Assembly (NCBI GenBank): GCA_963677495.2
Contig: CAXXOU010000002.1
Coordinates: 230,523 to 294,522, forward strand
From: Candidatus Cloacimonadales bacterium
GTDB taxonomy: Bacteria > Cloacimonadota > Cloacimonadia > Cloacimonadales > JAFGVF01
Length of the DNA: 64,000 nt
Direction of reading: 5' to 3'
This document shows, in pieces, positions 3,627-53,575 of the stretch; position 1 is the stretch's first letter, and each line of letters opens with the position of its first letter. Under the pieces are notes generated by a model, which did not search any database, was not told where the DNA came from, and saw nothing but the letters and a program-made list of their open reading frames with translations. The position numbers and the translations under genes are program-made.

Positions 3627-3880
3627 AAGATATACCTCGCATTATAATTATAGTATGATTATCTATGTTGTCAATCAAAAGAATCATATATAATTATAAA
3701 ATGACTTTGGTTCATTTTCATGAAAGGATTGTAGCATTATAATCAAGAAACTTTTCCAGAAACTTTTCCATTGATCTAATCCCTTATTGTCTGCAGTGTC
3801 CTGAATAAGTTTACCATAGTTTTAGTTACTCAGTTTACTTCAATTGAATGAAATAATTCTATCTTTTCTAAATTGATTTA

Positions 3881-4669
3881 CTAAGAAGCATATACACTTC
3901 CAGGAGTGTTGTAGTCAAGTGAAGAATGATATCTTTTATTATTATAGATATAAACTGCTTCTTCCGTTGCTTGCAAAGCGACCTTTTTGTTTGGGAATTT
4001 CAATTTCATTCCCAGATCATGTTTCAATGTTCTGTTTACTCTTTCAGCGACTGCATTATCATAGCAGTGATTCTTTCCTGTCATACTAACTCTTGCATGG
4101 CTTCTTTTAAGCAATCCGATGTATTCTTTACTACAGTACTGGACACCATGATCAGAGTGAAGTATTATACCTCGCGGGATTTTTGTTCCTCTTTTTGCTT
4201 TATTAAATGCCTTCACTGCTCCTTTTGTTTCCAGAGTATCAGATAAGTAGTGACCAACTATCTTTCTTGAATAGTAGTCTGTTACTAAAAACAGATACAT
4301 AAACCCCCTTCCAACTGAGATATATGTAATGTCTGTTACCCAAACTTGGTCTTTTTTTGTGATGTTCGTTTCCGGTAAAAGATTGGGGTATATCTTCAAT
4401 TTATGCTTCCAGTTTGTTGTAACTACATATCGCTTGGGAGGTCTTTGCAATAAGTTATTCATACGTAACAACTCTATTAGTTTATCTCTACTTATCTTTA
4501 GGTCAGGATCATTATGTTTTATAAGCATTTTCATTATCATTCGATAGCCTGTTGTCTCCTGTTCTCGCCGGAGCTCTTCCACGAGTCGCACTATCTCACG
4601 GTCTCTCGCAGCATCTCGTTCGAGTATTTTTACATGCTTATTATAGCCTTGTCTTGTATAACCGTACAC
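3881..4669 (-). CDS. IS3-family transposase OrfB (DDE/rve integrase core)
   Basis: 262 aa from the first Met. The WVTDITY, LHSDHGVQY and AERVNRTLK blocks match the DD(35)E rve core. The frame stays open upstream to the slippery site, so an OrfAB fusion by -1 frameshift is expected. Confidence 0.9.
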   Translation of the reverse strand: MYGYTRQGYNKHVKILERDAARDREIVRLVEELRREQETTGYRMIMKMLIKHNDPDLKISRDKLIELLRMNNLLQRPPKRYVVTTNWKHKLKIYPNLLPETNITKKDQVWVTDITYISVGRGFMYLFLVTDYYSRKIVGHYLSDTLETKGAVKAFNKAKRGTKIPRGIILHSDHGVQYCSKEYIGLLKRSHARVSMTGKNHCYDNAVAERVNRTLKHDLGMKLKFPNKKVALQATEEAVYIYNNKRYHSSLDYNTPGSVYAS

Positions 4670-4683
4670 CTTACAAATCCTCT

Positions 4684-5118
4684 CTAATCCTCTGTATCGG
4701 AGTCCGCATTCAATAGCTCTTTCTTGAGTTTTTCCTGCACTATCGAACCAAGCTTTTTTTTTAGATCCATACCTAGCTTATTACCGGATACTTCTATCAA
4801 TGTCTCTAATGCTAACTCTTTAAGATAGCTATCGTCCAATGCACGCTGAAGCCGTCTATTCTCCTTGCGTAAGCGGATTAATTCGGTCTTTTCATCTTTA
4901 GTCATATAGTGTACCACCTTATCAATCTTTTGATCCATTCCATATTTTTTGATCCAACCTCGAATGGTTGTCGTACTTGGTATTTTATAAAGCTGAGTTG
5001 CTTCACTAATAGTTAAATATCCACTCTCGATTTCGTCTACTACTTTCATCTTAAATACTACACTATAGTTTCTCAAAACTCTCTTTTCTTCTTTCTCTTT
5101 CATCTCTTTTCCTTTCAT
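4684..5118 (-). CDS. IS3-family transposase OrfA (HTH plus leucine-zipper-like region)
   Basis: 144 aa. An HTH-like segment (ISEATQLYKIPSTTTIRGWIKKY) is followed by a coiled-coil region. It lies directly upstream of OrfB in the 0 frame. Confidence 0.9.
   Translation of the reverse strand: MKGKEMKEKEEKRVLRNYSVVFKMKVVDEIESGYLTISEATQLYKIPSTTTIRGWIKKYGMDQKIDKVVHYMTKDEKTELIRLRKENRRLQRALDDSYLKELALETLIEVSGNKLGMDLKKKLGSIVQEKLKKELLNADSDTED
4753..4762 (-). promoter_or_regulatory. Programmed -1 ribosomal frameshift site (A9G slippery run) of the IS3 element
   Basis: The minus strand reads CTA AAA AAA AAG CTT in the OrfA frame (plus-strand T9 run at 4754-4762). The frame offset between OrfA and OrfB equals -1. 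A AAA AAG is the classical IS3 motif. Confidence 0.75.
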
Positions 5119-5148
5119 AGTTTAGGGTAACTATTTCAGGACAATACA

Positions 5149-5310
5149 GTCTCTTCATCTCCCTGCAGTAATTCTTGGTAGACACTTGGCAAACCCTTGG
5201 TAAACCCTTGGCCTATTCTTGGCCTAATCGCCAAGAATTTACCAACCTATCGCCAAGTTAAAACCTGTTTACAATCACTAGTTACTGCAGAGAGTAGCGA
5301 GATGAATGAA
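5149..5310. repeat. Phased-word hairpin element, copy 1 (its left 9 nt lie at 3783-3791, split off by the IS3 insertion)
   Basis: CTTGG starts at 5174, 5185, 5196, 5207 and 5218, then CCAAG/CCAAC/CCAAG at 5231, 5242 and 5253, all on an 11-nt phase. Outer arms CTGCAGTAA (5163-5171) and TTACTGCAG (5282-5290). Homologous to 36128-36305. Confidence 0.8.
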
Positions 5311-5464
5311 AGTAGAAACAATCGGATAAAGTCTGGAAGAATTGGTATTATCACGTTTGCATTTACCTAACACAAGTCATGATCTACCCTTAACTTACTT
5401 TTGTTTAGAAGACCCACAAGAGGATTCTCGATTTGGGGTAGTGATTCATTATTCATCACACGAA

Positions 5465-5538
5465 GTGATGTTTATGGGGTAATGGAGCATCAAACAATGA
5501 CTACTCTAAACAGTTTCATATTGCGAAGCTTTATGGTC
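5465..5538 (+). pseudogene. Relic fragment of an M1-peptidase gene (GAMEH region joined to the YCEALW region)
   Basis: 5482-5519 nearly matches 6561-6598 and 5520-5538 nearly matches 6721-6738 of the downstream M1 gene, so about 120 bp are missing between them. The upstream codons read VYGVMEH against VYGAMEH in the intact gene. Confidence 0.6.
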
Positions 5539-5684: not shown

Positions 5685-8570
5685 ATGAGACATAGGATAG
5701 TTATTACAGCTTTGTTATTGATGTTGTGTGTAGCTCTATTTGCACACCCTCGACTTGATAAACCAATCTCTAATGAATTAGCACAACGATATGCTAATAT
5801 GTATACAAGAGCTGATTCATTACATGGATTTGATGTTGAAAAATATGAGATATTCTTAACTATAAATGATCAAACACAATATTTAGACGGACATGTTATT
5901 GCCACTGTTAATGCAGAGGAAGCAATGTCTGTGATTGAGTGGGATTTGGTTGGTCTCACAGCTACTGCAATTGAAGTTAATGGAGTTATGCAGAATAACT
6001 TCTCACAGAACGATACACATGTGATAATCCCTCTTACAGGGATAAATGATGGTGATCAATTCACTACTACTGTTTACTATTCAGGAAATCCTACGATGAG
6101 TCCTGTTTATGGCTGTGGTATGTTTTTCCAGAATGGCTCAGTGTTTACTATCTCGGATCCTGATGCTTCCAGATATTGGTGGCCTTGTTATGACCACCCA
6201 TGGGATAAAGCAATTGTAGATTTACATGTAACTATCAGAGATGATTGGGTGGCAGCCTGTAATGGTCTAAGAGATTCTATTGTTGATAACGGTGATGGAA
6301 CAAAGACACATAACTGGTTGGGCTCAAATCCTATGACTACATACTTAGCTTGCATCACTGCCGGTAACTATCATGAGCTTCCTTTGCAGTATTATAATGG
6401 CATTCCGATTCAGGACTTTGTCCTACCTACTCAGATTGCAAATGCGACAGAGGACCTTTCCCGTTTACCTGACATGATGAGTGCTTTCTCACAAATGTTT
6501 GGTGAATACCCTTTCGAGAAATATGGTCAAACAACTGTGAGTATGGGTGTATATGGTGCTATGGAGCATCAAACAATGACAACTCTAAACAGTTACATGA
6601 TAACCGGTACACATCAGTATGATACAATATTTGCTCATGAACTTTCACATCAATGGTTTGGCAATTGCTTAAGTATACTTGAGTTTAAAGATGTATGGCT
6701 TAATGAGGGTTTTGCAACATATTGCGAAGCTTTATGGACAGAATATGACCAAGGTTATCAAGCAATGTGCGATTACTACCGTGATGAGATATCCGGATAC
6801 TATTTGAGCTATGCTAACAGTTATGGTCCCCATACTACTTATGACCCTCCTTTTAACGCTTTGTTTACGCCAGTTACTTATGAGAAGCCCGGTTCAGTAC
6901 TGCACATGCTTCGTGCGAGAGTTGGTACAGAAATGTTTTTTAATATACTTCAATCCTGGTTCCAGGAATATTATAACGGTAATGTGAAGAGCTCTGAGTT
7001 TGAGGAGAAGTGTGAAGAGCTAACTGGTGAGAACTTCGACCAGTTCTTTGACCAATGGATTTATGGTTCAGGTATCCCTGAATATGAATATTCTGTATTT
7101 TATAACTACAATTTAGCAATTCCAAGATATAAAGTTTACGCTAAAACTACATCAAATACAGACACTGAGTTTGTTCTCGATATACCTTTCCATCATTATA
7201 GCTCTACTCAGCGAGACAGTGCATTAATACAAGCCGGTCCTGATGTCACAGAGTCAGTAGTTATGCTTGAGTACTTGCCGGTTGGGTATGAGATGGATCC
7301 TGATGAATGGATGATGGTAAGAGGTAGAGAGGAGCATAAAGTTGAAATAGTGGATGTTTATGCAGGAACCAACAGTGCACGAGTTGTATGGGCTCCATTC
7401 TGGGAAGATGTAGAAACAGAAGGTTATTACATTTATCGTGCTACTTTTGATGGTCCATTTGTAATGCAAACATCTGAACCTGTTACTGGAACAGAATGGA
7501 CTGATACTAACCTTTCACCACAAACTGAGTATTCGTACTATGTTGTTGCAGTAGACTCACAGGGATACGAATCCATGCCTTCTGAAACGAGAGTGGTTTG
7601 GACTGTCGATATGCCTATGGATCAAGGGATGCTCATCGTTGATGAAACTCGTGATATGAATGGTAATGTGCTTACTCCGGATGATGCTCAAGTAGATGAT
7701 TTCTATAGAGAAGTGTTTGCAGGAATGATATATGATGAGTATGATTACGCAACGGAAGGAGAAATAAGTGCTACAACACTTGGTCAATACTCTATAGTAT
7801 TTTGGCATGATGATGACTTCGCTGAGTTATTTGTAGAGGACAATCTCAATGCATTAGGAAGTTATCTAATGAGTGGAGGTAATCTTATTCTCTCAGGCTT
7901 TAAGACAACCGGTCAGATGAATCAGGATTTCCTGAAACAATATTTCCCTAATCTCTCTCCTGTTTATACTAATAACGCAGTCTTCGAATCAGCGTTCAGT
8001 ACAACATATCCAAGTCTGATTCTCGACCAAACGAAAATTCCTGCTAATTGGAATCAGAGCTTGAGAATGACTTTCAGTTTCCCTAACTATGGTGATGGTG
8101 CACTATATTTTGCAGACTATACAGATGGAGAACTTGCTGATGGTAATGCAGTAATCATCACAACAGATACCGGTGGTTCTCTAACGCTGAGTGGTATTCC
8201 GCTATATATGTTTGAGGTAGAGGGTGTCACTACTTTCTTGAACAGTTATATAGAATCGATTGATGAGTTCGTAGATAACGAAGACCACCAGCAACAGGTT
8301 GTAAATCCTGAACTTGTAGCGTATCCTAATCCTTTCAATCCTGAGCTTAATGTAAAAGTAGAGGGAATATCTGAAGAGATTGAAGTCTCTGTCTACAATA
8401 TCAAAGGGCAGAAGGTTGTCACTCTTATCAATGAGAGAGTAAGTGGTAATAAAACCCTTGTTTGGGATGGTAGAGACAGCAATGGAACAAACTGTGCATC
8501 CGGAATATATATGATACATGCAAAAAGCAATTCATTGAACACTGTAAAGCGTGTGATGTTGCTTAAATAG
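5685..8570 (+). CDS. Secreted M1-family zinc metallopeptidase with T9SS-type C-terminal domain
   Basis: 961 aa with a signal peptide. GAMEH (a GAMEN-like motif), HELSHQWFGN (HExxH) and WLNEGFATY (third zinc ligand). C-terminal AYPNPFNPELNV...NIKGQKV...SGIYMI sorting-domain signature. AAGGAGA RBS. Confidence 0.85.
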   Translation: MRHRIVITALLLMLCVALFAHPRLDKPISNELAQRYANMYTRADSLHGFDVEKYEIFLTINDQTQYLDGHVIATVNAEEAMSVIEWDLVGLTATAIEVNGVMQNNFSQNDTHVIIPLTGINDGDQFTTTVYYSGNPTMSPVYGCGMFFQNGSVFTISDPDASRYWWPCYDHPWDKAIVDLHVTIRDDWVAACNGLRDSIVDNGDGTKTHNWLGSNPMTTYLACITAGNYHELPLQYYNGIPIQDFVLPTQIANATEDLSRLPDMMSAFSQMFGEYPFEKYGQTTVSMGVYGAMEHQTMTTLNSYMITGTHQYDTIFAHELSHQWFGNCLSILEFKDVWLNEGFATYCEALWTEYDQGYQAMCDYYRDEISGYYLSYANSYGPHTTYDPPFNALFTPVTYEKPGSVLHMLRARVGTEMFFNILQSWFQEYYNGNVKSSEFEEKCEELTGENFDQFFDQWIYGSGIPEYEYSVFYNYNLAIPRYKVYAKTTSNTDTEFVLDIPFHHYSSTQRDSALIQAGPDVTESVVMLEYLPVGYEMDPDEWMMVRGREEHKVEIVDVYAGTNSARVVWAPFWEDVETEGYYIYRATFDGPFVMQTSEPVTGTEWTDTNLSPQTEYSYYVVAVDSQGYESMPSETRVVWTVDMPMDQGMLIVDETRDMNGNVLTPDDAQVDDFYREVFAGMIYDEYDYATEGEISATTLGQYSIVFWHDDDFAELFVEDNLNALGSYLMSGGNLILSGFKTTGQMNQDFLKQYFPNLSPVYTNNAVFESAFSTTYPSLILDQTKIPANWNQSLRMTFSFPNYGDGALYFADYTDGELADGNAVIITTDTGGSLTLSGIPLYMFEVEGVTTFLNSYIESIDEFVDNEDHQQQVVNPELVAYPNPFNPELNVKVEGISEEIEVSVYNIKGQKVVTLINERVSGNKTLVWDGRDSNGTNCASGIYMIHAKSNSLNTVKRVMLLK

Positions 8571-13118: not shown

Positions 13119-13210
13119 TAGCAGTCACCATTACGACCAACGGGAGTTCGGGGAACCGACTGAAAGGAGCTCGTAAGCTGATAAGCGAACAACTTCTTGC
13201 GACTTCGAAG
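13119..13210 (+). repeat. Dispersed repeat family 'CAGTCACCATTACGACC', copy 1
   Basis: CAGTCACCATTACGACCAACGGGAG...GAGCTCGTAAGC...ACAACTTC also occurs at 53362-53440 (with a 22-nt deletion), 56283-56388 and, reverse-complemented, at 38822-38866. Confidence 0.75.
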
Positions 13211-13293
13211 TAAGATATAAGTTTCTCATTTACCCAAACTCGCATTGGTAACTGCATCCGTGGGATAAGAGTTGCTTTTGACTTAAACATATT

Positions 13294-13475
13294 CGACCCC
13301 GTTGGGGTCGTTGATTCTTAAGGGGACTTGACACCATGCATTGCATACATTGGCTACTCACATTTTATCCCTTTGGGATAATTCCTGCTAACCATGGAAT
13401 GGTTACCTATAAGTAGCCCCGAATGCAATTCGGGGTTTTGAAGCACCTTCCTATTTTGTAACCCCAACGGGGTTA
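13294..13475. repeat. Cluster of five short tri-loop hairpins
   Basis: CGACCCC-GTT-GGGGTCG (13294-13310), ATCCC-TTT-GGGAT (13367-13379), TAACCAT-GGA-ATGGTTA (13389-13405), CCCCGAAT-GCA-ATTCGGGG (13417-13435), TAACCCC-AAC-GGGGTTA (13459-13475). Confidence 0.7.
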
Positions 13476-13509
13476 AATCTGGTTAAAAGTTAATTCCAAG
13501 TTAATACTA

Positions 13510-13655
13510 CTCTCACTGCTCTATCACAATTCCCATGAGTCTCTAGAGGGTCTCCTATTGAAATCCTATTAATTTCCGGTTATGGGGGATAGGAGACTGA
13601 GTAGAATGTGGTAAGGTGAGTATAGTTTTTGAATCATTATTGTGATAGGGTAATG
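13510..13655. repeat. Phased-word hairpin element, copy 3
   Basis: Arms CTATCACAAT (13521-13530) and ATTGTGATAG (13639-13648). CCTAT/CCTAT/CCGGT start at 13554, 13565 and 13576 (11-nt phase). Inner stem GTCTCCTAT / ATAGGAGAC. Shares the AATTC(C/T)CATGAGTCTCT core with 16207-16300. Confidence 0.7.
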
Positions 13656-13862
13656 AAATGGGCATGTAGCTCCAATTTTACATTAAAATGTACGCCCTTT
13701 AAAAGCTATTTCTGCCTTCCTTATTTCTCAATAGATACTCGTTAGCTTCCCTTTAGATCCCCGTTTCGGAAGTAGGGAATTGGATACGCAATAGATGGGA
13801 TAAAGATGTAGACAAAATTCCAATTAAGAAAGAACAATTCTAAAGATATAAATCAGGGAAAT

Positions 13863-13901
13863 AGAAAAAGCCCCACACCTGGATGTATGAGGTCCTTTTT
13901 T
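13863..13901 (+). repeat. 38-nt box AGAAAAAGCCCCACACCTGGATGTATGAGG(T/C)CCTTTTTT, copy 1
   Basis: Near-identical (one mismatch) to 16372-16410. The two copies bracket the Reg_prop gene. Confidence 0.8.
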
Positions 13902-13979
13902 GCAATTCATTATTAGTAATAGTTTTATGGAACAAATATTGCATCTATATTATTAAATTAATGAAGGAGTTATACTATT

Positions 13980-16145
13980 ATGAAAAGGGATTCTATCATT
14001 TTACTTCTGATTCTATTGTTTTCATCTACTATTTTATTTGCCCAGGATATGCAATGGAAGCAATATACTAATGGTGATTATACTCGTTGCTCAGCTTTTG
14101 ATGGAGATTGTGTATGGGTTGGAACACAAGGTGGACTAGTAAAATATAATACTATCACTGAAAGCACTGAGTACTTCAATAATGCAAACTCAGAACTTCC
14201 ACATAACGATGTAACTTCGATTGTTGTATCTAGTGACGGTACGAAATGGATAGGAACAAGATATGGTGGACTAGCAAGCATTCACAACGGTAACTGGACT
14301 ATCTATAATAGCTCTAATTCAGGTCTTCCTTCAAACTCTATTGATTGCCTGGCAATAGATGATTCTGATGATCTTTGGATTGGCTCATACGGACTGACCA
14401 AATTCGATGGTGTAAACTGGACGACATGGAACTCAGAAAACAGTTCATTATCCAGTAATATGATTAAATCAATTGATTTTGATAGTCTGGGCAACATTTG
14501 GTTCGCATTGTTTTATAGAGGTCTCGTAAGCTTTGATGGCTCAACTTTTATTGAGTATTCTGCCCATGAAATAGATTTACCATTTAACTGCTCAAAGGGT
14601 ATAGCAATAGATGACAATAATGTTGTTTGGTTAGCTGCAGACTTTCATGGAGGTTTATATCGATTCGATGGTACCTGCTGGACTGAGTATCAAACGAACA
14701 ATAGTGGCATTCAGAGTGACTACTTAAGGGATGTTACAATTGATTCAGATGGAATAATCTGGCTCTCTGCAGCCAGTGGAGTAATAAAATATAATGGAAC
14801 GTCATGGGAACATTATAACACTACTAACTCAGGTTTACCTTATAGCAATGTTCTAGATATATCTGTTGCCGACGAAAAACTATTTGTTTGTACATCGTTT
14901 GGCTCTGTACTTTTTGACAAGATTGCGAACACATGGGTTAACTTGAATGAAAGCAACTCTCAACTAGATACAAATAGAATTAATGATATTGTTGTAGACT
15001 TAGATGGAGATGTTTGGTTTTCATCTCATGGTATTACTCGTATCGAAGGTGATACTTGGAATCAGTATCTAGAAGAAAATACTGGTGCTCCAATTGATTA
15101 TAACAGGGATATTGAGTTTGACTCTAATGGAGTTCTTTGGGTAGCAACTTCAAGTGATGGACTTGTTTCATTTGATGGCTCTGACTGGATAGAATTCAAT
15201 ACTAGTAATTCTGATATCCCTACAGATCATATGGAGTCTATGGAAATTGATAATAATGGCACTATCTGGTGCATCGGACACTATGACAAAGATAGAGTAT
15301 TGTTTAACTATGATGGCAATGGTTTTACAACTTATTGGGATCTATTTAACTACTATGACAGAGGGTTCAATCTTGTAATTGACTCTGATAACACAGTTTG
15401 GATAGAAGCAGATTATGAACTTGCACATTTTGTTAACAATCAGTGGATCCATTACACAGCTGATAACTCAGGATTGAGAGATGAATATATCTGTGACATA
15501 GCTGTAAACAATAATCTCATTTGGATTACTTACAGTGATGGATTTATTTCAAGCTATGATGGATTAAACTGGGTAGACTATGATCTGACACCATATGGTT
15601 TAACTTTCGGTTCCTTCCAAATCCATTACTTTGACTCAAATGATTGTATATGGTTATCAAACAAAAACTACGAACATACTGATTCATATCTGGCAAAGTT
15701 CAGTTTTAATGATGTACAGTACTTCAGGACTTCCAATTCCGGTTTGTCAAGTAACAAAGTTTCAGCAATGGTAGCAGATAATAATGAAACCTTGTGGTTC
15801 GCTACAGAAGGTGGAATCGCTATTTACGGTGAACAAGCAGTTTCATTACAAGATGATATTCAAGCTTTTGAACAGCTTAACTTTACTAATTACCCCAATC
15901 CTTTCAATCCTTCTACTAATATCTCATTCACTCTTAGTAAAGCACAAAAAGTGAAGCTTTCTGTTTATAATGTGAGAGGACAGCTTGTAAACTTGATTAC
16001 TGAAAACTCATTTAGTAAAGGTACACATTCAATCGAATGGGATGGTTTAGATAAGGATAACAGAACTGTTTCAAGTGGTGTATACTTCTTTAGGATTGAA
16101 TCTGAGAGTTCTATTGAATCTAGTAAAGCATTATTGTTAAAATAA
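13980..16145 (+). CDS. Secreted beta-propeller protein (two-component regulator propeller / Reg_prop-type repeats) with T9SS-type C-terminal domain
   Basis: 721 aa with a signal peptide. Many repeats of the form GGL..(F/Y)DG..W..Y...NSGL.SN.I..I..D..G.IW. C-terminal NYPNPFNPSTNISF...VYNVRGQLV...SGVYFFRI. Confidence 0.8.
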   Translation: MKRDSIILLLILLFSSTILFAQDMQWKQYTNGDYTRCSAFDGDCVWVGTQGGLVKYNTITESTEYFNNANSELPHNDVTSIVVSSDGTKWIGTRYGGLASIHNGNWTIYNSSNSGLPSNSIDCLAIDDSDDLWIGSYGLTKFDGVNWTTWNSENSSLSSNMIKSIDFDSLGNIWFALFYRGLVSFDGSTFIEYSAHEIDLPFNCSKGIAIDDNNVVWLAADFHGGLYRFDGTCWTEYQTNNSGIQSDYLRDVTIDSDGIIWLSAASGVIKYNGTSWEHYNTTNSGLPYSNVLDISVADEKLFVCTSFGSVLFDKIANTWVNLNESNSQLDTNRINDIVVDLDGDVWFSSHGITRIEGDTWNQYLEENTGAPIDYNRDIEFDSNGVLWVATSSDGLVSFDGSDWIEFNTSNSDIPTDHMESMEIDNNGTIWCIGHYDKDRVLFNYDGNGFTTYWDLFNYYDRGFNLVIDSDNTVWIEADYELAHFVNNQWIHYTADNSGLRDEYICDIAVNNNLIWITYSDGFISSYDGLNWVDYDLTPYGLTFGSFQIHYFDSNDCIWLSNKNYEHTDSYLAKFSFNDVQYFRTSNSGLSSNKVSAMVADNNETLWFATEGGIAIYGEQAVSLQDDIQAFEQLNFTNYPNPFNPSTNISFTLSKAQKVKLSVYNVRGQLVNLITENSFSKGTHSIEWDGLDKDNRTVSSGVYFFRIESESSIESSKALLLK

Positions 16146-16206: not shown

Positions 16207-16300
16207 CATTACTCCCTCACAATTCTCATGAGTCTCTTGGGCCTTTCTTGGGGATTTCAGGAAAATTAACTGATCTAATGTATAAGAGAGTGATAGGAAA
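16207..16300. repeat. Phased-word element, copy 4 (arms degenerate)
   Basis: Core CACAATTCTCATGAGTCTCTTGGGCC. CTTGG at 16236 and 16247 and CAGG at 16258 (11-nt phase). Confidence 0.55.
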
Positions 16301-16371
16301 ATGGCAAGGAAGGGACCATTAAGAAATCAGTATTAAGATAGAGCAATGTAGAAGGTATAAGTTATGGAAAC

Positions 16372-16410
16372 AGAAAAAGCCCCACACCTGGATGTATGAG
16401 GCCCTTTTTT
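16372..16410 (+). repeat. 38-nt box, copy 2
   Basis: See 13863-13901. Confidence 0.8.
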
Positions 16411-16586
16411 ATACGTCATTGGATGGATACTTATTTTATATGCATAAAGCGTTCCATTTGTTGTGAGTTTTACTAAATAAATTTAATTAACTGACTAGGC
16501 TATACTAGAACTAAATGCTTAAACACCACTTAAGTATGGATTCTAGGAGCAATATCAAAAATGAATAATATACATATCATTGTAAT

Positions 16587-17598: not shown

Positions 17599-17692
17599 AT
17601 CAACCTCAAATTCATAATTTTCTTCTAACTAAAACCTTATCTGCTCGGGTGTGAAATGCGTCAACCAAAGAGTTGGTTAAGAGAAGCTTTTA

Positions 17693-17788
17693 CCTTTGGA
17701 ATGGTCCCCAGACCTTCCAAATGGTGAAAAACGATATGGATTTATTGTTAGTGATGAGACTACCATTCCGAAGGTCTGGGGACCATTC
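17693..17788. repeat. Long hairpin repeat (about 27-bp stem)
   Basis: GGAATGGTCCCCAGACCTTC (17698-17717) pairs perfectly over 19 bp with GAAGGTCTGGGGACCATTC (17770-17788), and pairing continues inward (CAAATGGT / ACCATTCCG). The left arm recurs at 61935-61968. Confidence 0.75.
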
Positions 17789-17882
17789 AGAAGGTAGATA
17801 TAACACCCCGTCGTTAAAACGGCACCCTCTACAGAGGGGAATAGGCAGCTCTATCGAGCTGTGGGCAAGCAGGGTACATGCC

Positions 17883-18334
17883 CTACGCGAACAGACATCT
17901 CACTAAAAGTTCAGGTTCAAGTCTATACTTCGAGCCTTTCCCTTCAAAGAAATTATGTTTTCGAATCATATGTATGTGTAATGGAGTCCAGGAGAACTCA
18001 ATTGCTTTCTCGTTATCCTTAAGCTTAATCACTGCTTTGGAGTAAACTCCCGGATCAGCAAACGGGCAGATAACCTTTCCTCGATAAGATAAATACTCCA
18101 ACGTAAAATTCTTATACTCAACTGGTCCCATCGGACTTTGGTAGGCAATATCGGTTAACTCTTCTAACTTATCTGCAATCTCTTCAGGGGTAATTCCGAG
18201 AACTTCAAGTGTTTTACATCTTCTGCGATAATGTCATGTACATGACGGGTATCATCACCAAGAAAACCTTCAGCAGAGATTGTGCCCGGTTGCATTCTTT
18301 TTTGAATCTGCAATTCTTTTTCAGTTTGTTTCAT
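17883..18334 (-). pseudogene. Hypothetical protein gene co-transcribed with nqr, interrupted by a single frameshift (or assembly indel)
   Basis: ATG at 18334, 11 nt after the nqrF stop, with an AAGGGGG RBS. The frame closes at 18164, but a second frame open from about 18230 to 17883 continues the sense (..HDIIAEDVK / TLEVLGITPEEIADKL..). The offset is fixed by one extra A in the A4 run (plus-strand T4 at 18212-18215). Confidence 0.6.
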
Positions 18335-22236: not shown

Positions 22237-22310
22237 AACGCTCCCTTCAATATTTATGTTTACAATCTATTCCATATTGTACACTGTACAAAGATTATTT
22301 CATAGAAATA

Positions 22311-22475
22311 TTATTGCTTATCATCTTTCTTGCCAATACCTCGTATCATTATCAATAATCCAATAGCTATTAGTATTATTCCCAATGGACCGTTAACTTG
22401 TAGGAATATCAGCATTAATGCTCCGGCAATGACAAGAATAAGTCCAGTTATTAATATATACAGTGATACTATCAT
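22311..22475 (-). CDS. Possible 54-aa two-helix membrane peptide upstream of nqrB
   Basis: ATG at 22475 to TAA at 22311. Translation MIVSLYILITGLILVIAGALMLIFLQVNGPLGIILIAIGLLIMIRGIGKKDDKQ. Below the ORF-track cut-off, with no RBS check possible, so speculative. Confidence 0.3.
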   Translation of the reverse strand: MIVSLYILITGLILVIAGALMLIFLQVNGPLGIILIAIGLLIMIRGIGKKDDKQ

Positions 22476-22926
22476 GTTACTTCCTCTTCATTAAGTTTAG
22501 GAATGGGTGTTTTTAGTGTCAATCAAAAGTTGTGATTAGTTTGACTGTTTAGTATATATTTCAGCTCTAGTCCATACGATCTACAGGAACAAGGCTTCCA
22601 CCGAAATATTGTATCACTATAGTTGATAAACGTAATTTACGTACTCGGTATGGAAGTGAGTTTAAGTCTATTAATTGTCACTATGAAATTGACTTAACTT
22701 GTCACCTTGTAGTGATAGTATGACGTGAGAATGATCTAAACATAGAGTAACGGACTTAGTGATTCAAGAGGCTTGGATAAAGCTAGAACACAACCCAAAA
22801 AAGCCACCAACTTATCGAAGTAATAATCCCATTCGTCGAAAAGATACCAAGATACATCTAACTAATTTGAAATCGAAGTTTAAATAGTATATGTTGTAAC
22901 CAGAAATGAATGAAAGAGGAAGTTTT

Positions 22927-29404: not shown

Positions 29405-29545
29405 GAACCGGTTAAATCCATATTCTTTGGATTGCATTTACTATGTAAATGCAACAGCCACATGACGCTGAAAGCATTCACTCAACTAAAATGAGCCACT
29501 AAACTAGGCACCGCAAGGCAAACCGACATAGTCGGTTAACTCCAT
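29405..29545 (-). repeat. REP-like unit (same family as the RAYT-flanking array), reverse orientation
   Basis: The reverse complement reads ATGGAGTTAACCGACTATGTCGGTTTGCC...GTTGCATTTACATAGTAAATGCAATCCAAAGAATATGGATTTAACCGG. Confidence 0.8.
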
Positions 29546-29594
29546 GAACAAAAGAGACACTAACCGTAGTCAGTGTCCTAATCTTGAATACAGA

Positions 29595-30234: not shown

Positions 30235-30331
30235 ATATCTAACCACGGATGATCCACGGGTAAACCAGGCCTAAACGACGGGAGCTGTGGTTAACCCGCG
30301 GTTTACCTGTGGTCAACCCGTGGTTAGATAT
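30235..30331. repeat. Phased-word element, copy 8 (palindrome-bounded CCNNGG array)
   Basis: 14-bp perfect terminal inverted repeat ATATCTAACCACGG / CCGTGGTTAGATAT. GG dinucleotides start at 30247, 30258, 30268, 30280, 30289, 30300, 30311 and 30322 (spacing 9-12, mostly 11). Confidence 0.75.
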
Positions 30332-34287: not shown

Positions 34288-34725
34288 ATATGGATTTATG
34301 GAATTAACCGACTATGTCGGTTTGTCGTGTCACATTTCGTTGAGTAGCTGATAATAGTTTAGTTATGCTTTTTTAATGTCGCGTGGCAGTTGCATCTACA
34401 CAGTATATGCAGTCCAAAGGAATATGGAATTAACCGACTATGTCGGTTTGTCGTGTCACATTTCGTTGAGTAGCTGATAATAGTTTAGTTATGCTTTTTT
34501 AATGTCGCGTGGCAGTTGCATCTACACAGTATATGCAGTCCAAAGGAATATGGAATTAACCGACTGTGTCGGTTTGTCATGTGGCACTTAGTTTAGTGGC
34601 TCATTTTTGTTTAGTTGATGCTCTCAAAGTCGCGTGGTAGTTGCATCTACACAGTAAATGCAGTCCAAAGGAATATGGAATTAACCGACTGTGTCGGTTT
34701 TTCATGTGGTACTTAGTTAATTTGT
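34288..34725 (+). repeat. Tandem array of a 125-126-bp REP-like unit (3 full units plus 1 partial) upstream of the RAYT gene
   Basis: Units start (TATGGAATTAACCGAC) at 34297, 34423, 34549 and 34674. Units 1 and 2 look identical by eye. Each carries hairpin AACCGAC-NNN-GTCGGTT and a second stem TGCAT...ATGCA. Confidence 0.9.
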
Positions 34726-34749: not shown

Positions 34750-35286
34750 ATGTATAAAGAGTATAAGCATAATCCCCCGCACCTTTTTCTTGCAGACACA
34801 AAATACTTTATCACAACTTCAACCTTAGGAAGGTATAAATATCTTGGAACTAAAGAAGCCAAAGATGCTATTTTGCATTATCTCGTGAAAACAATCAACC
34901 ACTTCAATTGGATATTAGAAGATTGGGTCATTTTAGATAATCATCTACACTTAATGATGACAGCTCCAGAGGACGCTACTAATCTTCCAGAATTAATGCA
35001 TAACATCACTCGATTTTCTGCCAATTGGCTTTCTAAACATGGTGTCAAAAAGATAGAAAGACAATATTTCCATAACTATTGGGATACCTGTATAACATAC
35101 GAAAGGTCATATTATTGTCGTCTAAACTATATTTGGAATAACCCTGTAAAACATGGATATGTTGAATACCCGGAAGATTGGGAGTATGGGAGTTATTTCT
35201 ACAGAATAAGAGAACTTGAAAACGACACTCATAAGATAATGAACAACTATCCCATTGACAGAATTCATGTTGAAGATGACTTTTAA
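34750..35286 (+). CDS. REP-associated tyrosine transposase (RAYT; IS200/Y1 HUH family)
   Basis: 178 aa. HUH motif in LDNHLHLMM, and catalytic Tyr region RLNYIWNNPVKHGYV typical of RAYT/Y1 transposases. Embedded in the REP-like array. Confidence 0.8.
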   Translation: MYKEYKHNPPHLFLADTKYFITTSTLGRYKYLGTKEAKDAILHYLVKTINHFNWILEDWVILDNHLHLMMTAPEDATNLPELMHNITRFSANWLSKHGVKKIERQYFHNYWDTCITYERSYYCRLNYIWNNPVKHGYVEYPEDWEYGSYFYRIRELENDTHKIMNNYPIDRIHVEDDF

Positions 35287-35287
35287 A

Positions 35288-35413
35288 TATGGAATTAACC
35301 GACTGCGTCGGTTTGTCTTGTCACACATAGTTTAGTGGCATATTTTTATTTAGTTGATGCTCTCAAAGTCGCGTGGCAGTTGCATTTACATAGTATATGC
35401 AGTCCAAAGGAAT
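35288..35413 (+). repeat. REP-like unit downstream of the RAYT gene
   Basis: TATGGAATTAACCGACTGCGTCGGTTTGTC...GTTGCATTTACATAGTATATGCAGTCCAAAGGAAT, in the same orientation as the upstream array. Confidence 0.9.
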
Positions 35414-35427
35414 AGAAGGAAACGAAC

Positions 35428-36081: not shown

Positions 36082-36127
36082 AACTTAATCCCATTTTCTC
36101 CACCTACAAGATGTTATATTTTCAACT

Positions 36128-36305
36128 TTTACCCTTATTCCCCCTCATTGCCCTGCAGTAATCCTTGAAAGACCCCTGTGAAACCCTTGGGAAACACTTG
36201 GGTAACCCTTGGGTTAAATACCAGGGAGTAAACAATTTATTAATAATTTAGAATTTAGTTGAAGGCATTTGTTACTGCTGAGAGAAGAGAGGGAATGAGA
36301 GAGTA
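36128..36305. repeat. Phased-word hairpin element, copy 2 (closest paralogue of copy 1)
   Basis: CCCTTATT..CTCATTGCCCTGCAGTAATCCTTG aligns with the reconstructed copy 1. CTTGG at 36186, 36197 and 36208, with related words at 36164 and 36176. Right arm TTACTGCTG...AATGAGAG. Confidence 0.75.
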
Positions 36306-36399
36306 CTGTTTAGGATTGGAGTGATTATATCCTTTTTAGTGGACTATTGATATTCTATAAGTTAGTTGGAATAAGTGATCTAAATTATATTGACATATT

Positions 36400-38091: not shown

Positions 38092-38264
38092 TTTTCATCC
38101 TCAATTCTCTATCACTGCACTATCATAATTCCCAATTGAAGGTACTCTGATTCAAGGGAGTCTCTTGGGCCTCACTGGGAAAAATAGACAAGTGACTGAT
38201 TGGAAATGGACAGGATGTTCTAGGTTAAAGAACCATTATTATGATAGTGCAGTGAAGATGAAAA
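38092..38264. repeat. Phased-word hairpin element, copy 5
   Basis: Perfect 17-bp arms CACTGCACTATCATAAT (38113-38129) and ATTATGATAGTGCAGTG (38238-38254), plus outer TTTTCATC / GATGAAAA. GGG at 38156, 38167 and 38177. Core GAGTCTCTTGGGCC is shared with copies 3 and 4. Confidence 0.8.
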
Positions 38265-38741: not shown

Positions 38742-38925
38742 CAAGCTCGCGTCCATGCGAACTTGTGAGTACGACGCCAAGCGAAGGCTGTCAGGTTCAA
38801 CTTGAGTTAGTGGCCAATTTACGCATTTCCCCGAACTCACTATCGTTCGTAATGGTGACTGCTTCTGAATTAAGTTCGTACTGAACAATCAAGGGAGTCC
38901 GTTTTATATCGTAAACTCCCTTCTG
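38742..38925. repeat. Mosaic of dispersed repeats between convergent genes
   Basis: 38742-38790 matches the reverse complement of 62215-62275. 38822-38866 is the reverse complement of the CAGTCACCATTACGA family. 38891-38922 is a hairpin AAGGGAGTCCGT...CGTAAACTCCCTT of the GAGTCCGT family. Confidence 0.7.
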
Positions 38926-39914: not shown

Positions 39915-41159
39915 ATGTTAGAGAATAGATTTAAAGAATGGGGTAACAACCCCTCGAAGCTGGAAGAAGTTTTCAGAACTGATGAAAAAGCTTTTAAGAA
40001 GGATTTCTATGAGTATATAGATGGGGTGGAGGAGACAGATTTAATCCGCTATTGGAGAGCGAGACTTGAGTATAAGAAGCTCAAATCTGTTGTTAAGAAA
40101 CCGATACCTCATCAAGTAATTTCTACACTTATCATTTGTGTTATTCTATATCTGCTTACAAAGATACCGGATATTATAGGAGTTCCCGATAAATCATTCT
40201 TTTTCGAGAAGAACCTTGCTTTAATTATTATATCAGGTTTACTACTGGTTGTATTTCATAAGAACAGGTCCAAAATATTACCGGTGGCTCTTACAGGACT
40301 ATTCATGGCAGGATGTGTCGTGTATATAAACACGATTCCTGAGTTAATGACAGAAAGTGTATCGCACCTGCTTAAGCTACATCTTCCCTTCTTACTCTGG
40401 TTCGTTTGGTGCTTTAGTTATGAGGATTTTAGCCTGACTGACATTGATACAAGAAACAAGTTTATAAGGAATAATGGAAATATTGCGATAATTTCAATAG
40501 TTACATGTCTGGGACTTTTCGCCTTAGCCGGGCTCTCAATAGCACTCTTTTCACTTATTCAAATAGATATTGAGGAGTTCATGGAAGAGAATATCTTCAT
40601 GTGGATAGTAGTCTCTTCACCAATTATTGCATTTGTTATCACTGAGAACTACCCTAATATAGCCGGTAAGATAGCCACTATTATGGTAAGGGTGTTCAGT
40701 CCGATAACACTTACAACTCTTTTAATCTATTTAGCTCTACTTCCATTCTCCACTCACAATCTTTATGAAAACCGTGGTTCATTACTTGTCTTTAATCTGT
40801 CACTCTTCCTTGTACTTGCAATAATGGCATTTGGATTACTTGATACAGAAGGTTTAAAAAGCAGATTTTATAAGTATATATACTTGTTTTTGGGAATCGT
40901 AGCGTTTGTGATAAATGTTGTAGCGTTATCAGCAATCTTCTATCGTGTTAATGAATATGGCCTTTCACCCAATAGATTGGCTGTATTAGGCTCAAACTTG
41001 GTTGTCTCAGTTCATCTTGCAATGTTGATATTAGCATTACACAAGTACAAACGCAATAAATGTGAACAGGAGTTTGTTTCAAGAACAGTTGGACTTTATC
41101 TGCCGGTATACGCTATTTGGCTGATGCTGGTACTTTCTATGTTCCCAATTCTGTTTTAA
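39915..41159 (+). CDS. Hypothetical polytopic membrane protein with about 60-aa cytoplasmic N-terminal domain
   Basis: 414 aa, about 10 hydrophobic segments, strong AAGGAGG RBS. Family not recognised. Confidence 0.6.
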   Translation: MLENRFKEWGNNPSKLEEVFRTDEKAFKKDFYEYIDGVEETDLIRYWRARLEYKKLKSVVKKPIPHQVISTLIICVILYLLTKIPDIIGVPDKSFFFEKNLALIIISGLLLVVFHKNRSKILPVALTGLFMAGCVVYINTIPELMTESVSHLLKLHLPFLLWFVWCFSYEDFSLTDIDTRNKFIRNNGNIAIISIVTCLGLFALAGLSIALFSLIQIDIEEFMEENIFMWIVVSSPIIAFVITENYPNIAGKIATIMVRVFSPITLTTLLIYLALLPFSTHNLYENRGSLLVFNLSLFLVLAIMAFGLLDTEGLKSRFYKYIYLFLGIVAFVINVVALSAIFYRVNEYGLSPNRLAVLGSNLVVSVHLAMLILALHKYKRNKCEQEFVSRTVGLYLPVYAIWLMLVLSMFPILF

Positions 41160-41160
41160 T

Positions 41161-41350
41161 ATGGAGTTAACCGACTGTGTCGGTTTGTCTTGTCACACTT
41201 AGTTTCGTGGTTTATCCTAGCTGATATATGCTATTTTACATCGCTTGGCAGTTGCATTTACATAGTATATGCAGTCCAGATGAATATGGAATTAACCGAC
41301 TGTGTCGGTTTGTCTTGTCACACTTAGTTTAGCGAATCATCCGTGGTTAG
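41161..41350 (+). repeat. REP-like units (one full, one partial), same family as the RAYT array
   Basis: TATGGAGTTAACCGACTGTGTCGGTTTGTCTTGTCACAC...GTTGCATTTACATAGTATATGCAGTCC, then TATGGAATTAACCGACTGTGTCGGTTTGTCTTGTCACAC. Confidence 0.85.
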
Positions 41351-42754: not shown

Positions 42755-45700
42755 ATGCGTTGCAAATTACTGTTTCTTTATTTATTATTTATTGTTTGTG
42801 TAACTCCCTTAATCTCAATTAACAACATAACTCGTGATCCAAATAGAGCCTTTGAGATTACAGAATCAAATCCAACTGGTATTATAGTCAAATTCACATT
42901 GCCAGAGTTTCAAGTAGAGGGTAGTATTGTAGATGGGAATGAGAAGGTCAGAATCCTTTCTGAATCAGATAATAGGGTTTCTCTGGCCAGTGGTATTGAC
43001 GTACCATATTATTCTACAACACTTGCCATCCCAAATACTGGAAAAGTATCATTGGAAGTACTAGAAGAGAGGACTGAGACTATTAAACTCACGTCCTTTG
43101 GTTCTAAGCATCTTGATAGAAACTCTGAAGAACTTCCAGTTATTACAGAAGAGTTAGAAACTGTTAATCTCTCAACTCCTGCAATCATGAGAGACTTAAG
43201 AGTTGTAACTCTTTCAGTATCTCCTTTCAACTATGATAAGCAGACAAAAAATCTTAGTACTGTGAACGAAGTTACGTACAAAATCAGTATCCTACCGGAA
43301 AGAGGTGAGAATGAGTTGGAGTTAGGAAATAAAAAGCTTTCTGCTTCTTTCTTACCTCTTTACCAAAATGTAGTGGATAACTTTAATGAGGTAGTTGGTA
43401 GACATGAGATTGACTACGAGAAGAGACTATTAATTCTCTATGCTGATTCAGACAATCAACAATACTTGGATAAACTAGATGAGCTTATTCAGTGGAAGCG
43501 TCAGAAGGGATTTATTGTTTCAGGTATTGAAGTAGCAGGCTTAGGTCTTTCTGAGATAAAAACCATTATACAGAATCACTATAATAATGAGAATACAAGA
43601 CCTGATTATGTCATGCTAATTGGTAATCCAATGGGAGCTTATGATATAACATGTTACAATTATAATTCTGGAGCATCTGACTATGAGTATTCCTGTTTGG
43701 ATGGAAACGATAGTTTAGGTGATGTAATTATCGGTAGAGTTCCAATGGATAGTGTTGTGGGTTTTCTAACAATGACAGAGAAGATTTTCGCTGTGGAAAG
43801 GAACCTTGATAGGAGTAATGCCGTTTGGTTGAATCATATAATTCTTGATGCATTAACCCAATATTGTGGTAAATCGGTTCTATATGTGAATTATTACGTT
43901 AAGCTAATTGCAGGCTTAGCGAACAATGAATATAGCTTTTCTGAAATATATGATAACCAACTCCCTCCTGAAGAAATATTTAATCAAGGTTCGATGTTAT
44001 ATCACTTCAGGGGGGGTAATTACAATTGGATTGAGAATGCAACTTTTTCGAACGCAAACAAATTACCTCATTGTATAATGATTTCAAGTAACTCCGGAAA
44101 CTTCAACACAATGTGCCCAACTAAAACAGTTGTAAACTATGGTACTCCTGATTCTTTAGGAGGTGCTTTAACAGCTATTGGACTATCATCTTCACCATCT
44201 CATACAATATATCGAAATATCTATAGTGCTAACGTTGCTGAGGGTGTTTTTGTGAACGGTCTTCGGGATATGGGCTCAGCTTTACTCTATTCTAAATGGC
44301 AATCAACACAATTGTTACCTACCTATACTCCTGATTACATTAGTCTTAATCATCAATGCAACCTTTTAGGTGATCCAACTGCAGAAGTATTTATTGGTAT
44401 ACCCTCTGAATTGCAGCTCTCATGTCGTGAATCAATTACTATTAACGAAAACCAATATGCAGTCTTAGTTACAGATGCAAATGGAGTTGGTGTTGAAGAT
44501 GTTTGTGTTACACTCGTAAATGATTCGTTACAAGAGATAGCGTTTACAGATATCACCGGAAGGGCAATGGTCGATGTACCTGTTGGCTCAGCAATTGCTG
44601 ATAGTTTGATAGTCACAGCGAGTAAGCAAGACTTTGTCCCTACAGTACAGTATCTCCAAATTCAGGCTGAAGGCCAAGTCTCTATAACTCAAGCGATATT
44701 TTTTGATGATAGCGGGAATAATGATAATGTCCCAGATGCCGGAGAAGTACTGGAACTTAGTGTTGAGTTGCAGAATAACACTGACATTATGCTAAATCAG
44801 CTCAATCTTTCTCTTACTACTCAGGATCCGTACATAACAATTATCAATAATCAAGCGACTATTCCCTGCATTCCTGAATCGGGAACCGCAAGTATTAATA
44901 CACCATTTACACTGAGCACAGATCCTAATACTCCAGATGGGCATACAGCAGAGCTGTTAGTTCACTGCAATGATTCAGTCTATCCTGTAATTTTAACAGT
45001 GCACAATGCTATGGTTTGTGTAAGTGAATGTATTTTGATTAACAGTGATCAATATTTGTCTCCTGAGCAGGAGGTAAGTCTTAGTCTAACCATCCTTAAT
45101 TCAGGCTCTTCTCGGGCTGAAGATATTTATGTTTGTCTATCTTCTGAATCTAATCTGGTTAGCTTTAGTGATTCAGAAGCATTTATTGGAGATATTTTAC
45201 CTCAACAAGCAGTTACTAATTTAACTGATACTCTAATGATTGTTACATCTGAAAATTATCTAACAGAATCTGCAAGAACAATATATGCTACTTTTAGTAA
45301 CAACTCAGGTTTCTTACAAACTTGTCATTTCACCCTTGAAGGAGAACCTGAGAACGCAAATACTCCAACCGGACCTGATGCATTTGGTCATTATATCTAT
45401 CATAATAATGATTCTGAACATTTTGATACTCCAATCTATGAATGGATAGAAATTGCTGTACCGGAGGGTGGAAATGGTTCTCAGTTCTATTTTGCTGACC
45501 ACACACACGATGCAGATAACACAGACCAGTTGTATAGTATCACAATTGATGAAGTTGATTTACCTTTCAACTTTACGTTCTATGGGCAGATATATGATAA
45601 AGCTTACGTTTGTTCAAACGGATTCATTACATTTAACGAAACTCAGTTTGGTGCATCCAGGAACTATGAGATACCCGGTGCTATGTCCCCTAACCCTGTG

Positions 45701-47664: not shown

Positions 47665-47922
47665 ATTATACCATTTTTCATCGCTCAGAGTAGTAAACCC
47701 TTTTTATGGAGTTTGTCACACCCAACGGGCGAACGGACTTCCTAAAAAGACCTAACCCTTGCAGTTACAAGAGCAACATAGCCCGGCTAAAGATACATAA
47801 TCCAGGACCTACCCGTCACCCTCCAAAGAATAAAGGAAGTCCGTTATCACTTAACTACCGTTAAACTTCGGTAAACTCCCTTAATCTTTTCAATATCTGC
47901 TTATAAACATCTGATCTATTGC

Positions 47923-48078
47923 TTCTCTTTATCTAATCCCTACAAGAACCTCTTTGCACCGTTAAATAAGTTATGCACACGATGTGGATAACTTTAGGGG
48001 TTCATAGGGAGGGTCTAGGGAGGCTAAAGGGTGGGACAAGCGAGATTCTAGGTTTTTGATGAGATTAGATAAAGAGAA
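47923..48078. repeat. Phased-word hairpin element, copy 6
   Basis: Perfect 16-bp arms TTCTCTTTATCTAATC (47923-47938) and GATTAGATAAAGAGAA (48063-48078). TAGGG at 47995, 48005 and 48016, and AAGGG at 48027. Confidence 0.8.
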
Positions 48079-48357
48079 CCAGTTAACAAAGAATGTTAAA
48101 TGTTAAATGGTAAACGAATGCAAAATGAATGATGAAAAATGTGAAGTAAGAAACGTATGACAAGCTTCTTAACAATTGGGATTATTTACTGGAAGGAGAT
48201 TTTACATTATTCTTGAGAAGCGATATATGAGATAGAATATTGCTCAAATACTCAACGAAACTTGGTATATAAACATATTTTAGGGTAAAAAAGACTATTG
48301 GAATAATTATTACATTTTGTGAAAAGTGGTTAGTCGAATTGGGAAAGTGAATTTTTA

Positions 48358-53361: not shown

Positions 53362-53575
53362 GAAGCAGTCACCATTACGACCAACGGGAGGAGCTCGTAA
53401 GCCGATAGGCGCACAACTTCCGGGTCGCTCAGATGGCTTTAGGAGATTAGTATTAGTAGTATTGACTTATCTTTAGTATAATCTTTGCGGATAAGCTCTT
53501 CTTTAGTTGGGAGACTAAAGTTATCGGAGAGTTCTTTGGACTTCATTCACAAAACTCTCTTCGTTCAGAACAAGT
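53362..53575 (+). repeat. Mosaic repeat block (CAGTCACCATTACGACC family plus a block of about 150 nt shared with 56445-56600)
   Basis: 53366-53440 aligns with 13121-13205. 53421-53575 aligns with 56445-56600 (CGGGTCGCTCAG.TGGCTTTAG...TAGTAGTATTGAC.TATCT...ACTAAAG.TATC.GAGAG.TCTT..GACTTCATTC). Confidence 0.75.

Follow-up and report, generated by a model that had tools for sequence, protein, structure and literature searches.

Bacterial MITEs such as Correia, ERIC and RUP are small, non-coding, multi-copy elements that lie in intergenic regions, end in terminal inverted repeats and form stem-loops (review PMC3184786). The BrickBuilt MITE of Porphyromonas gingivalis is likewise intergenic with small inverted-repeat ends, and it carries an internal minisatellite whose 23-nt units run in one direction between leader and tail subunits (PMC4596501). 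The Drosophila foldback transposons FB and Galileo, which are kilobase-sized and use P or MULE transposases, have inverted arms made of short tandem sub-repeats (PMC3573991), and the REP and REPIN sequences associated with RAYT genes are dispersed intergenic hairpin palindromes without target duplications, the REPs being 20-40 nt long with a GTAG or CGTC head (PMC3733652). Direct repeats of 11 bp that each hold one protein subunit are known from the pMV158 RepB bind locus (PMC10288648) and from R1 parC, a plasmid locus next to parR and parM where 159 bp contain two five-iteron blocks of 11-bp direct repeats that flank a promoter and take up one ParR dimer per iteron, the DNA being U-shaped (PMC2241845).

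The element at 5149 (E1) of the 64-kb stretch of DNA analysed here, which we call the window, is also built from 11-nt units, in two inverted arrays. CTTGG starts at 5174, 5185, 5196, 5207 and 5218, and after a 13-nt step the right half has CCAAG at 5231, CCAAC at 5242 and CCAAG at 5253, again 11 nt apart. All these word positions agree exactly with the original prediction, and so do the arms, CTGCAGTAA (5163-5171) with TTACTGCAG (5282-5290) and TTCATC (5154-5159) with GATGAA (5301-5306), every one of which is present at 5154-5171 and 5282-5306. The extent first proposed, 5149-5310, is correct in its letters but not in its boundaries, because its left edge is the junction with an IS3-family insertion sequence and the element also occupies 3748-3791 and continues to ~5343. 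The two ORFs left of E1 are the OrfA and OrfB of this IS3 element (rve and HTH Pfam matches; NCBIfam transpos_IS3), which is bordered by a perfect 3-bp target duplication, GTC, at 3789-3791 and 5149-5151; since it ends at 5148 and the GTC duplication flanks it, 5149 is an IS junction. The parts of E1 and its interruption are as follows.

3748..3791, plus strand: outer left arm of E1, severed by the IS3 element; contains a 12-nt duplication, AGAAACTTTTCC twice (Tandem Repeats Finder row 3746-3770)
3792..5148, minus strand: IS3-family insertion sequence with TG...CA ends, interrupting E1 and not part of it
5152..5343, plus strand: main body of E1, with the inner left arm, both 11-nt arrays, the inner right arm and the outer right arm
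5168..5222, plus strand: left array of E1, five 11-nt units, each a variable 6-nt spacer and the invariant core CTTGG
5231..5274, minus strand: right array of E1, 3-4 inverted units, with plus-strand cores CCAAG, CCAAC, CCAAG and CCTGT

When the IS3 element and one GTC copy are deleted, 3748-3791 aligns with the left end of the copy at 36128 and pairs with 5311-5343. The restored E1, 235 nt long, forms a foldback over its entire length (z = -6.5; minimum free energy as DNA, -37.8 kcal/mol). Each of its arms, of ~70 nt, has three parts, namely an outer inverted repeat, CTGCAGTAA or TTACTGCAG, and an array of 11-nt units, and a short loop separates the two arrays, which face each other head to head. 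Between E1 and the downstream M1 peptidase gene, a 51-nt segment (5469-5519) is 88% identical to 6548-6598, the part of this gene for the GAMEH motif region, and may be the remnant of a decayed paralogue ahead of the intact gene.

The 11-nt phasing is real and far beyond chance. A lag scan with 44-nt windows and at least 62% self-identity finds 7 lag-11 segments in the window compared with 0-2 for lags 8-14, and unrelated genomes (649 kb) average 0.39 lag-11 segments per 64 kb in the same test. At least three identical in-phase 5-mers occur at 4 loci for spacing 11, compared with 0.05 in dinucleotide shuffles, and at no more than 1 locus for each other spacing from 6 to 24 except the harmonic 22. 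The only rhythm of the window as a whole is the 3-nt coding one, and lag 11 stands out locally; Tandem Repeats Finder reports period-11 arrays at 5174-5212, 16235-16258, 36172-36213, 48006-48031 and 55951-56048. The predicted lag-11 excess over controls and a period shared by copies whose words differ are thus both borne out. The claim that all eight loci, E1 to E8 in order of position (5149, 13510, 16207, 30235, 36128, 38092, 47923 and 55950), carry 11-nt phased words stands for the five with a lag-11 signal of their own (E1, E4, E5, E7 and E8), but not for E2, E3 and E6, which have only two in-phase words apiece and no such signal; these three are kept in the set because of homology and not periodicity. 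A weak lag-11 segment of GTTAA words is also seen directly left of E2 (13466-13509), adjoining the inverted repeat 13283-13308 / 13461-13486. The other seven copies are listed below.

13510..13656, plus strand: E2, family B; 18-nt terminal inverted repeat TCACTGCTCTATCACAAT; two in-phase words only (CCTAT)
16207..16348, plus strand: E3, family B, decayed; two in-phase CTTGGG words; right terminus 16332-16348
30235..30331, no strand assigned: E4; 97-nt near-palindrome with 4+4 units
36118..36335, plus strand: E5, family A, homologue of E1; left array of five units, CTTGA, CCTGT and three times CTTGG
38092..38264, plus strand: E6, family B; perfect 18-nt terminal inverted repeat, outer TTTTCATC/GATGAAAA; two in-phase words
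47920..48081, plus strand: E7; terminal inverted repeat of 32 nt; inner palindrome at 47968-47994
55906..56112, no strand assigned: E8; near-palindrome with 4+5 units, core CACTG/CAGTG at 11-nt spacing

The elements range from 97 to 235 nt. In E4, the CCACGG-type cores start at 30243, 30254, 30265 and 30276, and their complements at 30285, 30296, 30307 and 30318. E7 has four TAGGGAGG-type units in its right half only, and its DnaA boxes occur at chance frequency. E8 is closed by an outer 12-nt inverted repeat (55906-55917 and 56101-56112). In E5, the left array is kept whereas the right array has decayed to A/T-rich sequence and lost the complementary words. For E3, the predicted locus (16207-16300) is right but its right end is not; because the 18-nt terminal repeat of family B recurs at 16332-16348, we place the end there.

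Kinship among the copies extends well beyond the period. The two members of family A (E1 and E5) align over their whole length with 78% identity, and the three members of family B (E2, E3 and E6) align at 70% and share the 18-nt terminal repeat TCACTGC(A/T)CTATCA(C/T)AAT. An alignment of all termini gives the loose motif CTCTyCAyTGCa-CTATCAyAAT, shortened in family A as CCCTGCAGTAATTC, which links families A and B with E8 and, less clearly, with E7, and the unit consensus (G/T)AAACC-NN-GG (TAAACC-NN-GG) is common to the arrays of E1, E5 and E4. Much of the set is therefore related by ordinary homology, and the proposal that structure rather than sequence had been conserved is not upheld as it was put. 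Weak HMM cross-matches connect family A with family B and with E4 (E between 0.4 and 4); an nhmmer/HMM search of the window found no further family A or B copies. By these alignments, the eight loci look like one diversified superfamily and not like unrelated sequences that share a period. Besides the elements, an 89-nt repeat (82% identical) occurs at 13823-13911 and 16332-16420; it begins with sequence resembling a family B terminus and flanks the gene 13980-16145 on both sides, each time downstream of a family B element of the same orientation, and the pair may have arisen by segmental duplication or may form a composite arrangement.

Comparison of E1 and E5, by eye from their alignment, shows ~77% identity in the left array, ~80% in the termini and ~50% in the right array. 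Because the array is shared unit by unit between E1 and E5, it was copied together with the element and did not arise locally, and because the copies are only 70-80% identical, any activity must be old. Footprints left by repeated insertion of an IS that duplicates 11 bp were considered as well, and can give neither arrays that dispersed copies share unit by unit nor inverted halves. Among the 13 units of family A, mismatches per position are 8, 6, 4, 2, 6 and 7 in the spacer and 1, 1, 0, 0 and 2 in the CTTGG core (P = 0.005 against a uniform spread, with the phase picked from the conserved word so that some ascertainment bias remains); those in the CACTG core of E8 are 0, 0, 1, 0 and 0 (P = 0.054). 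A conserved core with a free spacer counts against plain recent slippage. This bears on the view that the arrays are functionless minisatellites, grown by slippage inside selfish or neutral palindromes with the length of 11 an accident of the founding unit. Such a history would account for a difference in unit number between homologous copies (nine in E8, ~4 in its homologue described below), family A, family B and E4 have a unit consensus in common so that a single ancestral 11-mer could account for much of the shared period, and 11-nt minisatellites of like unit do exist in unrelated, partly eukaryotic metagenome contigs. However, within units the core is kept and the spacer is free, the words of E8 and E7 are unrelated while their period is equal, and no other period is enriched in the window, so we regard functionless arrays as decidedly improbable.

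The capacity to fold back differs among the copies. On either strand, the hairpins of E1, E4 and E8 are highly stable (z = -4.7 to -7.8 vs shuffles), whereas shuffles of E5, E2, E3, E6 and E7 fold as well as the real sequences or nearly so (z = +0.8 to -2.5). The predicted fold-back ability is accordingly supported for E1, also in its restored form, E4 and E8, but not for E5 with its decayed right half; as E5 lost the complementary words and kept the left array, foldback has not been uniformly maintained. The elements have central loops of 3-8 nt, the central stems of E1 and E5 differ by one compensatory and one wobble change in the alignment, and the family B termini show a concerted C>T / G>A change. 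These three observations, together with the very stable folds of E1 (restored or not), E4 and E8, would suit hairpins that act as nucleic acid in the manner of REP/REPIN or Correia/ERIC sequences, either in mRNA stability or termination when transcribed with their neighbours or in single-stranded DNA mobilisation; the 11-nt period would then be the A-form helical repeat, and the G/C cores short helices between internal loops. The presence of a RAYT gene in the window and the missing target duplications, typical of single-stranded DNA transposition, also favour such hairpins. Against them stand the poor folding of the other five copies, the loss of one array in E5 while the other was kept, the repeats around the RAYT gene, which are unrelated to the elements, the lack of an Rfam match, and the lack of terminator-like sites in the two element regions scanned. 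On balance the hairpin explanation, including an A-form origin of the period, seems to us rather unlikely.

The RAYT gene itself (34750-35286; 92.7 bits vs NCBIfam NF047646, cutoff 80) is flanked by 3.3 tandem copies of a hairpin-containing 126-nt repeat unrelated to the 11-nt elements. Apart from these tandem copies the repeat has three other sites in the window; in all it is found at 34297-34707, 35237-35414 and 41158-41350, inverted at 29425-29554, and again in contig L129 (185-254) of the closest available relative, ENA sample ERZ27317826. The same contig has an IS3 element 80% identical to that of the window, 18 nt from a copy of the 126-nt REP-like repeat; the flank of another IS3 relative (L135) contains nothing related to the elements. 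IS1397 in E. coli prefers hairpin-forming repeats, and by analogy these positions hint at a similar preference of the IS3 element.

All eight elements are intergenic and overlap no gene, as predicted for a non-coding element (the chance of 8/8 midpoints being intergenic is ~5×10−7), and they fill ~13% of the intergenic DNA in the window. Their neighbouring genes are functionally unrelated, those downstream encoding M1 peptidase, kinase-like, rhodanese, VTC and C25 peptidase proteins. All five copies of families A and B are in plus orientation, and four of the five have a plus-strand gene 64-375 nt downstream. This arrangement would also fit a cis-regulatory role, in which the repeats carry, or have been exapted as, host operators for a winged-helix (OmpR/PhoB-type or CarH-type) or ribbon-helix-helix regulator binding head to tail. 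For such regulators, direct repeats pitched at 11 bp are the usual layout, as in the direct repeat units of Streptomyces PhoP (PMC3561978) and in CarH operators (PMC9304148), ParR acts as a repressor at parC (PMC2241845), and it is the left array that is conserved in both E1 and E5. However, the downstream genes have no function in common, the sole response regulator in the window is LytTR-type, the orientation bias concerns 5 copies in a mostly plus-strand region, and the E8-type copy in the relative precedes a different gene. We therefore consider host operators unlikely.

The long intergenic regions between three giant paralogous ORFs in tandem (42755-47617, 48358-53301 and 56768-61834; 1620-1688 aa) contain E7, E8 and other repeats. 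A domain scan of the first ORF (42755-47617) identified a C25 peptidase domain together with a tail for type IX secretion. One of the other repeats, the short AGCAGTCACCATTACGACCAACGGGAG, occurs at 13120-13155, 53364-53399 and 56285-56320 and inverted at 38847-38870, in long intergenic regions adjoining genes for type IX-secreted proteins, with a second shared block beside it at 53421-53472 and 56444-56495; this repeat has no match in Rfam, and could represent either a further repeat family or an RNA leader not yet annotated. The position of several elements upstream of large type IX-secreted proteins, and the size of these inverted-repeat-bounded elements (100-235 bp), would be expected of invertible promoter switches, in which the terminal inverted repeats are recombinase sites and the interior flips neighbouring surface-protein genes on or off. 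Such switches are nevertheless very improbable here, because the window holds no recombinase gene, the elements show no promoter-like excess inside, the near-perfect palindromes E4 and E8 would be unchanged by inversion, and other copies precede housekeeping-type genes. Scans of two element regions for sigma-70 promoters and terminators gave no excess and no terminator-like sites, and a sigma-54-like TTGG-N7-TTGG was set aside on inspection as one base off the consensus spacing.

The window belongs to a Cloacimonadota bacterium without a close genome on record, the best non-self match of its kinase-like protein being 41% identical. In the relative ERZ27317826, asparaginase is 79% identical in amino acids and the syntenic nqr-asparaginase block is 73% identical in nucleotides. 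This relative contains a homologue of E8 (contig L131, 5040-5145) whose arms match at 80.8% over 52 nt and at 86% over 36 nt, higher than the 73% of the flanking coding DNA. This copy has ~4 GCACTG/CAGTG units compared with nine in E8 and is non-syntenic; it precedes a gene for a small membrane protein and the nqr operon, and the window lacks such an element in the orthologous region (22237-22905). In ~73 kb from four more distant Cloacimonadota genomes, no lag-11 arrays were found. Two further segments of the window have counterparts in the relative. One is an inverted repeat at 17691-17796 (35-nt arms, 89% complementary) with a partial homologue at L129 2227-2265. The other, next to it, consists of the short ORFs 17883-18131 and 18164-18334, which correspond to one intact 149-aa gene (L131 9502-9951), and 17883-18334 is by this comparison probably a pseudogene in the present genome.

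Database searches recovered no described counterpart of the elements. Rfam gave 0 matches at the gathering score, consistent with the original prediction, and an E-value scan only sub-threshold miRNA-hairpin models on E8. E1 has no blastn match among plasmids and phages, and four scans of viral contigs gave 0 matches. The 17-mer CCCTGCAGTAATYCTTG has 89 single matches in genome contigs of unrelated taxa, which are due to chance because none extends beyond the seed, and AAACCCTTGGNAAACNCTTGG hits 37 metagenome loci that are unrelated 11-nt minisatellites, none with the element termini and some eukaryotic, such as that on a contig (L097) with PAC3 and DEAH OB domains. Three unrelated metagenome contigs have long 11-nt minisatellites whose units resemble GGAAAACCCTT or GCAAATCCCTG, namely L110 (3251-3332 and 3804-3951, two inverted arrays ~500 nt apart), L096 (6980-7188) and L121 (11233-11325). 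In the window, no transposase has termini matching the elements; the only transposases are the IS3 element, with different ends, and the RAYT, flanked by the different 126-nt repeat, and recombinase and par genes are lacking. Inspection of the flanks of 8/8 copies found no direct repeats that would mark a target-site duplication; such duplications could have been lost from old copies.

The elements are small (<~400 bp), contain no transposase ORF, have terminal inverted repeats of 18-32 nt in E2, E6 and E7, and occur as dispersed homologous copies, strictly between genes and, in the relative, at a different locus. We think it quite probable that they are a MITE-like dispersed repeat family. 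With no target duplications, and no parent IS in the window, they are filed as MITE-like and not as demonstrated MITEs. One outcome that would have undone the original prediction, namely ordinary decayed MITEs, is approached in that the copies look MITE-type, but they are uncatalogued in the collections searched and do show a few concerted arm changes. Because the cores form phased inverted arrays and 11-bp direct repeats elsewhere are bound by proteins, we propose that the arrays are cooperative binding platforms for the protein that moves or organises the element, which is possible though somewhat less likely than not. Our preferred reading of the whole, offered tentatively, is that of a lineage-restricted MITE-like foldback superfamily whose arms are arrays of cores spaced by one helical turn, probably bound by protein and most probably mobile in a non-autonomous manner. 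Against it weigh the missing target duplications, the lack of a matching transposase in the window and the single array of E5.

In this MITE-like superfamily, each arm carries 11-bp units in an array inward of an outer terminal inverted repeat, and each unit has a conserved G/C-rich 5-6-bp core and a variable, often AAAC-containing spacer; as the arms are inverted, the whole element is a long imperfect palindrome. Cores placed one helical turn apart would lie on one face of B-DNA and offer a cooperative platform for a protein, which could be the element's transposase or recombinase, encoded elsewhere in the genome, or an architectural partner, each unit binding one subunit or dimer in the manner of the iterons of R1 parC. 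With both arms loaded, the ends would come together, and the unit number would drift by slippage. A bolder version is that the arrays constitute a modular recognition code, in which each core word (CTTGG, CCACGG, CACTG, TAGGGAGG) is read by its own member of a lineage-specific protein family and these proteins polymerise along duplex DNA, or along an A-form hairpin, with a fixed pitch of one turn. We regard this code as a long shot; if true, it would mean dispersed chromosomal centromere- or silencer-like filaments, which have no described bacterial counterpart.

Should the MITE-like reading be correct, this would be the first bacterial MITE-like family found described with helically phased iteron-array arms, a design that plasmid centromeres and the foldback transposons of eukaryotes already have. 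Within Cloacimonadota, an uncultured phylum important in anaerobic digesters, the elements would be the mark of a lineage, and they would attract other mobile DNA, as with the IS3 inside E1. They would further provide a compact natural system for studying how arrays evolve when the words change and the pitch stays fixed. Practical uses are modest, namely better repeat annotation and strain markers from unit-number variation.

It is then evident where the elements agree with, and depart from, the known systems. With Correia, ERIC and RUP (PMC3184786) they share small size, non-coding sequence, terminal inverted repeats, copy number, intergenic position and stem-loops, but they differ in having arms of helically phased 11-bp sub-repeats and in lacking target-site duplications and, in the window, a parent IS. 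BrickBuilt (PMC4596501) is the nearest described bacterial case that we found, being intergenic with an internal minisatellite and small inverted-repeat ends; the units of our elements are 11 nt instead of 23 nt and form two inverted arrays that fold back, and there is no sequence similarity between the two. The REPs (PMC3733652) are similarly dispersed hairpin palindromes without target duplications, with a RAYT gene in the window as well, but they are shorter than our elements and have no 11-nt phasing described, and the RAYT gene of the window is surrounded by the 126-nt repeats and not by 20-40-nt palindromes. E1, E4 and E8 resemble FB and Galileo (PMC3573991) in their inverted arms of short tandem sub-repeats, whereas they are bacterial, at most 235 nt long and have no known transposase, the window containing no P- or MULE-type candidate. 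For the arrays, R1 parC (PMC2241845) is the best mechanistic analogy, E1 having 5 + 3-4 units within 107 nt; in contrast to parC, the blocks are inverted and abutting, and occur in many chromosomal copies with no promoter excess and no par genes nearby. The elements can thus be described as MITE or foldback repeats with an internal minisatellite, of which the arm design is the unusual part.
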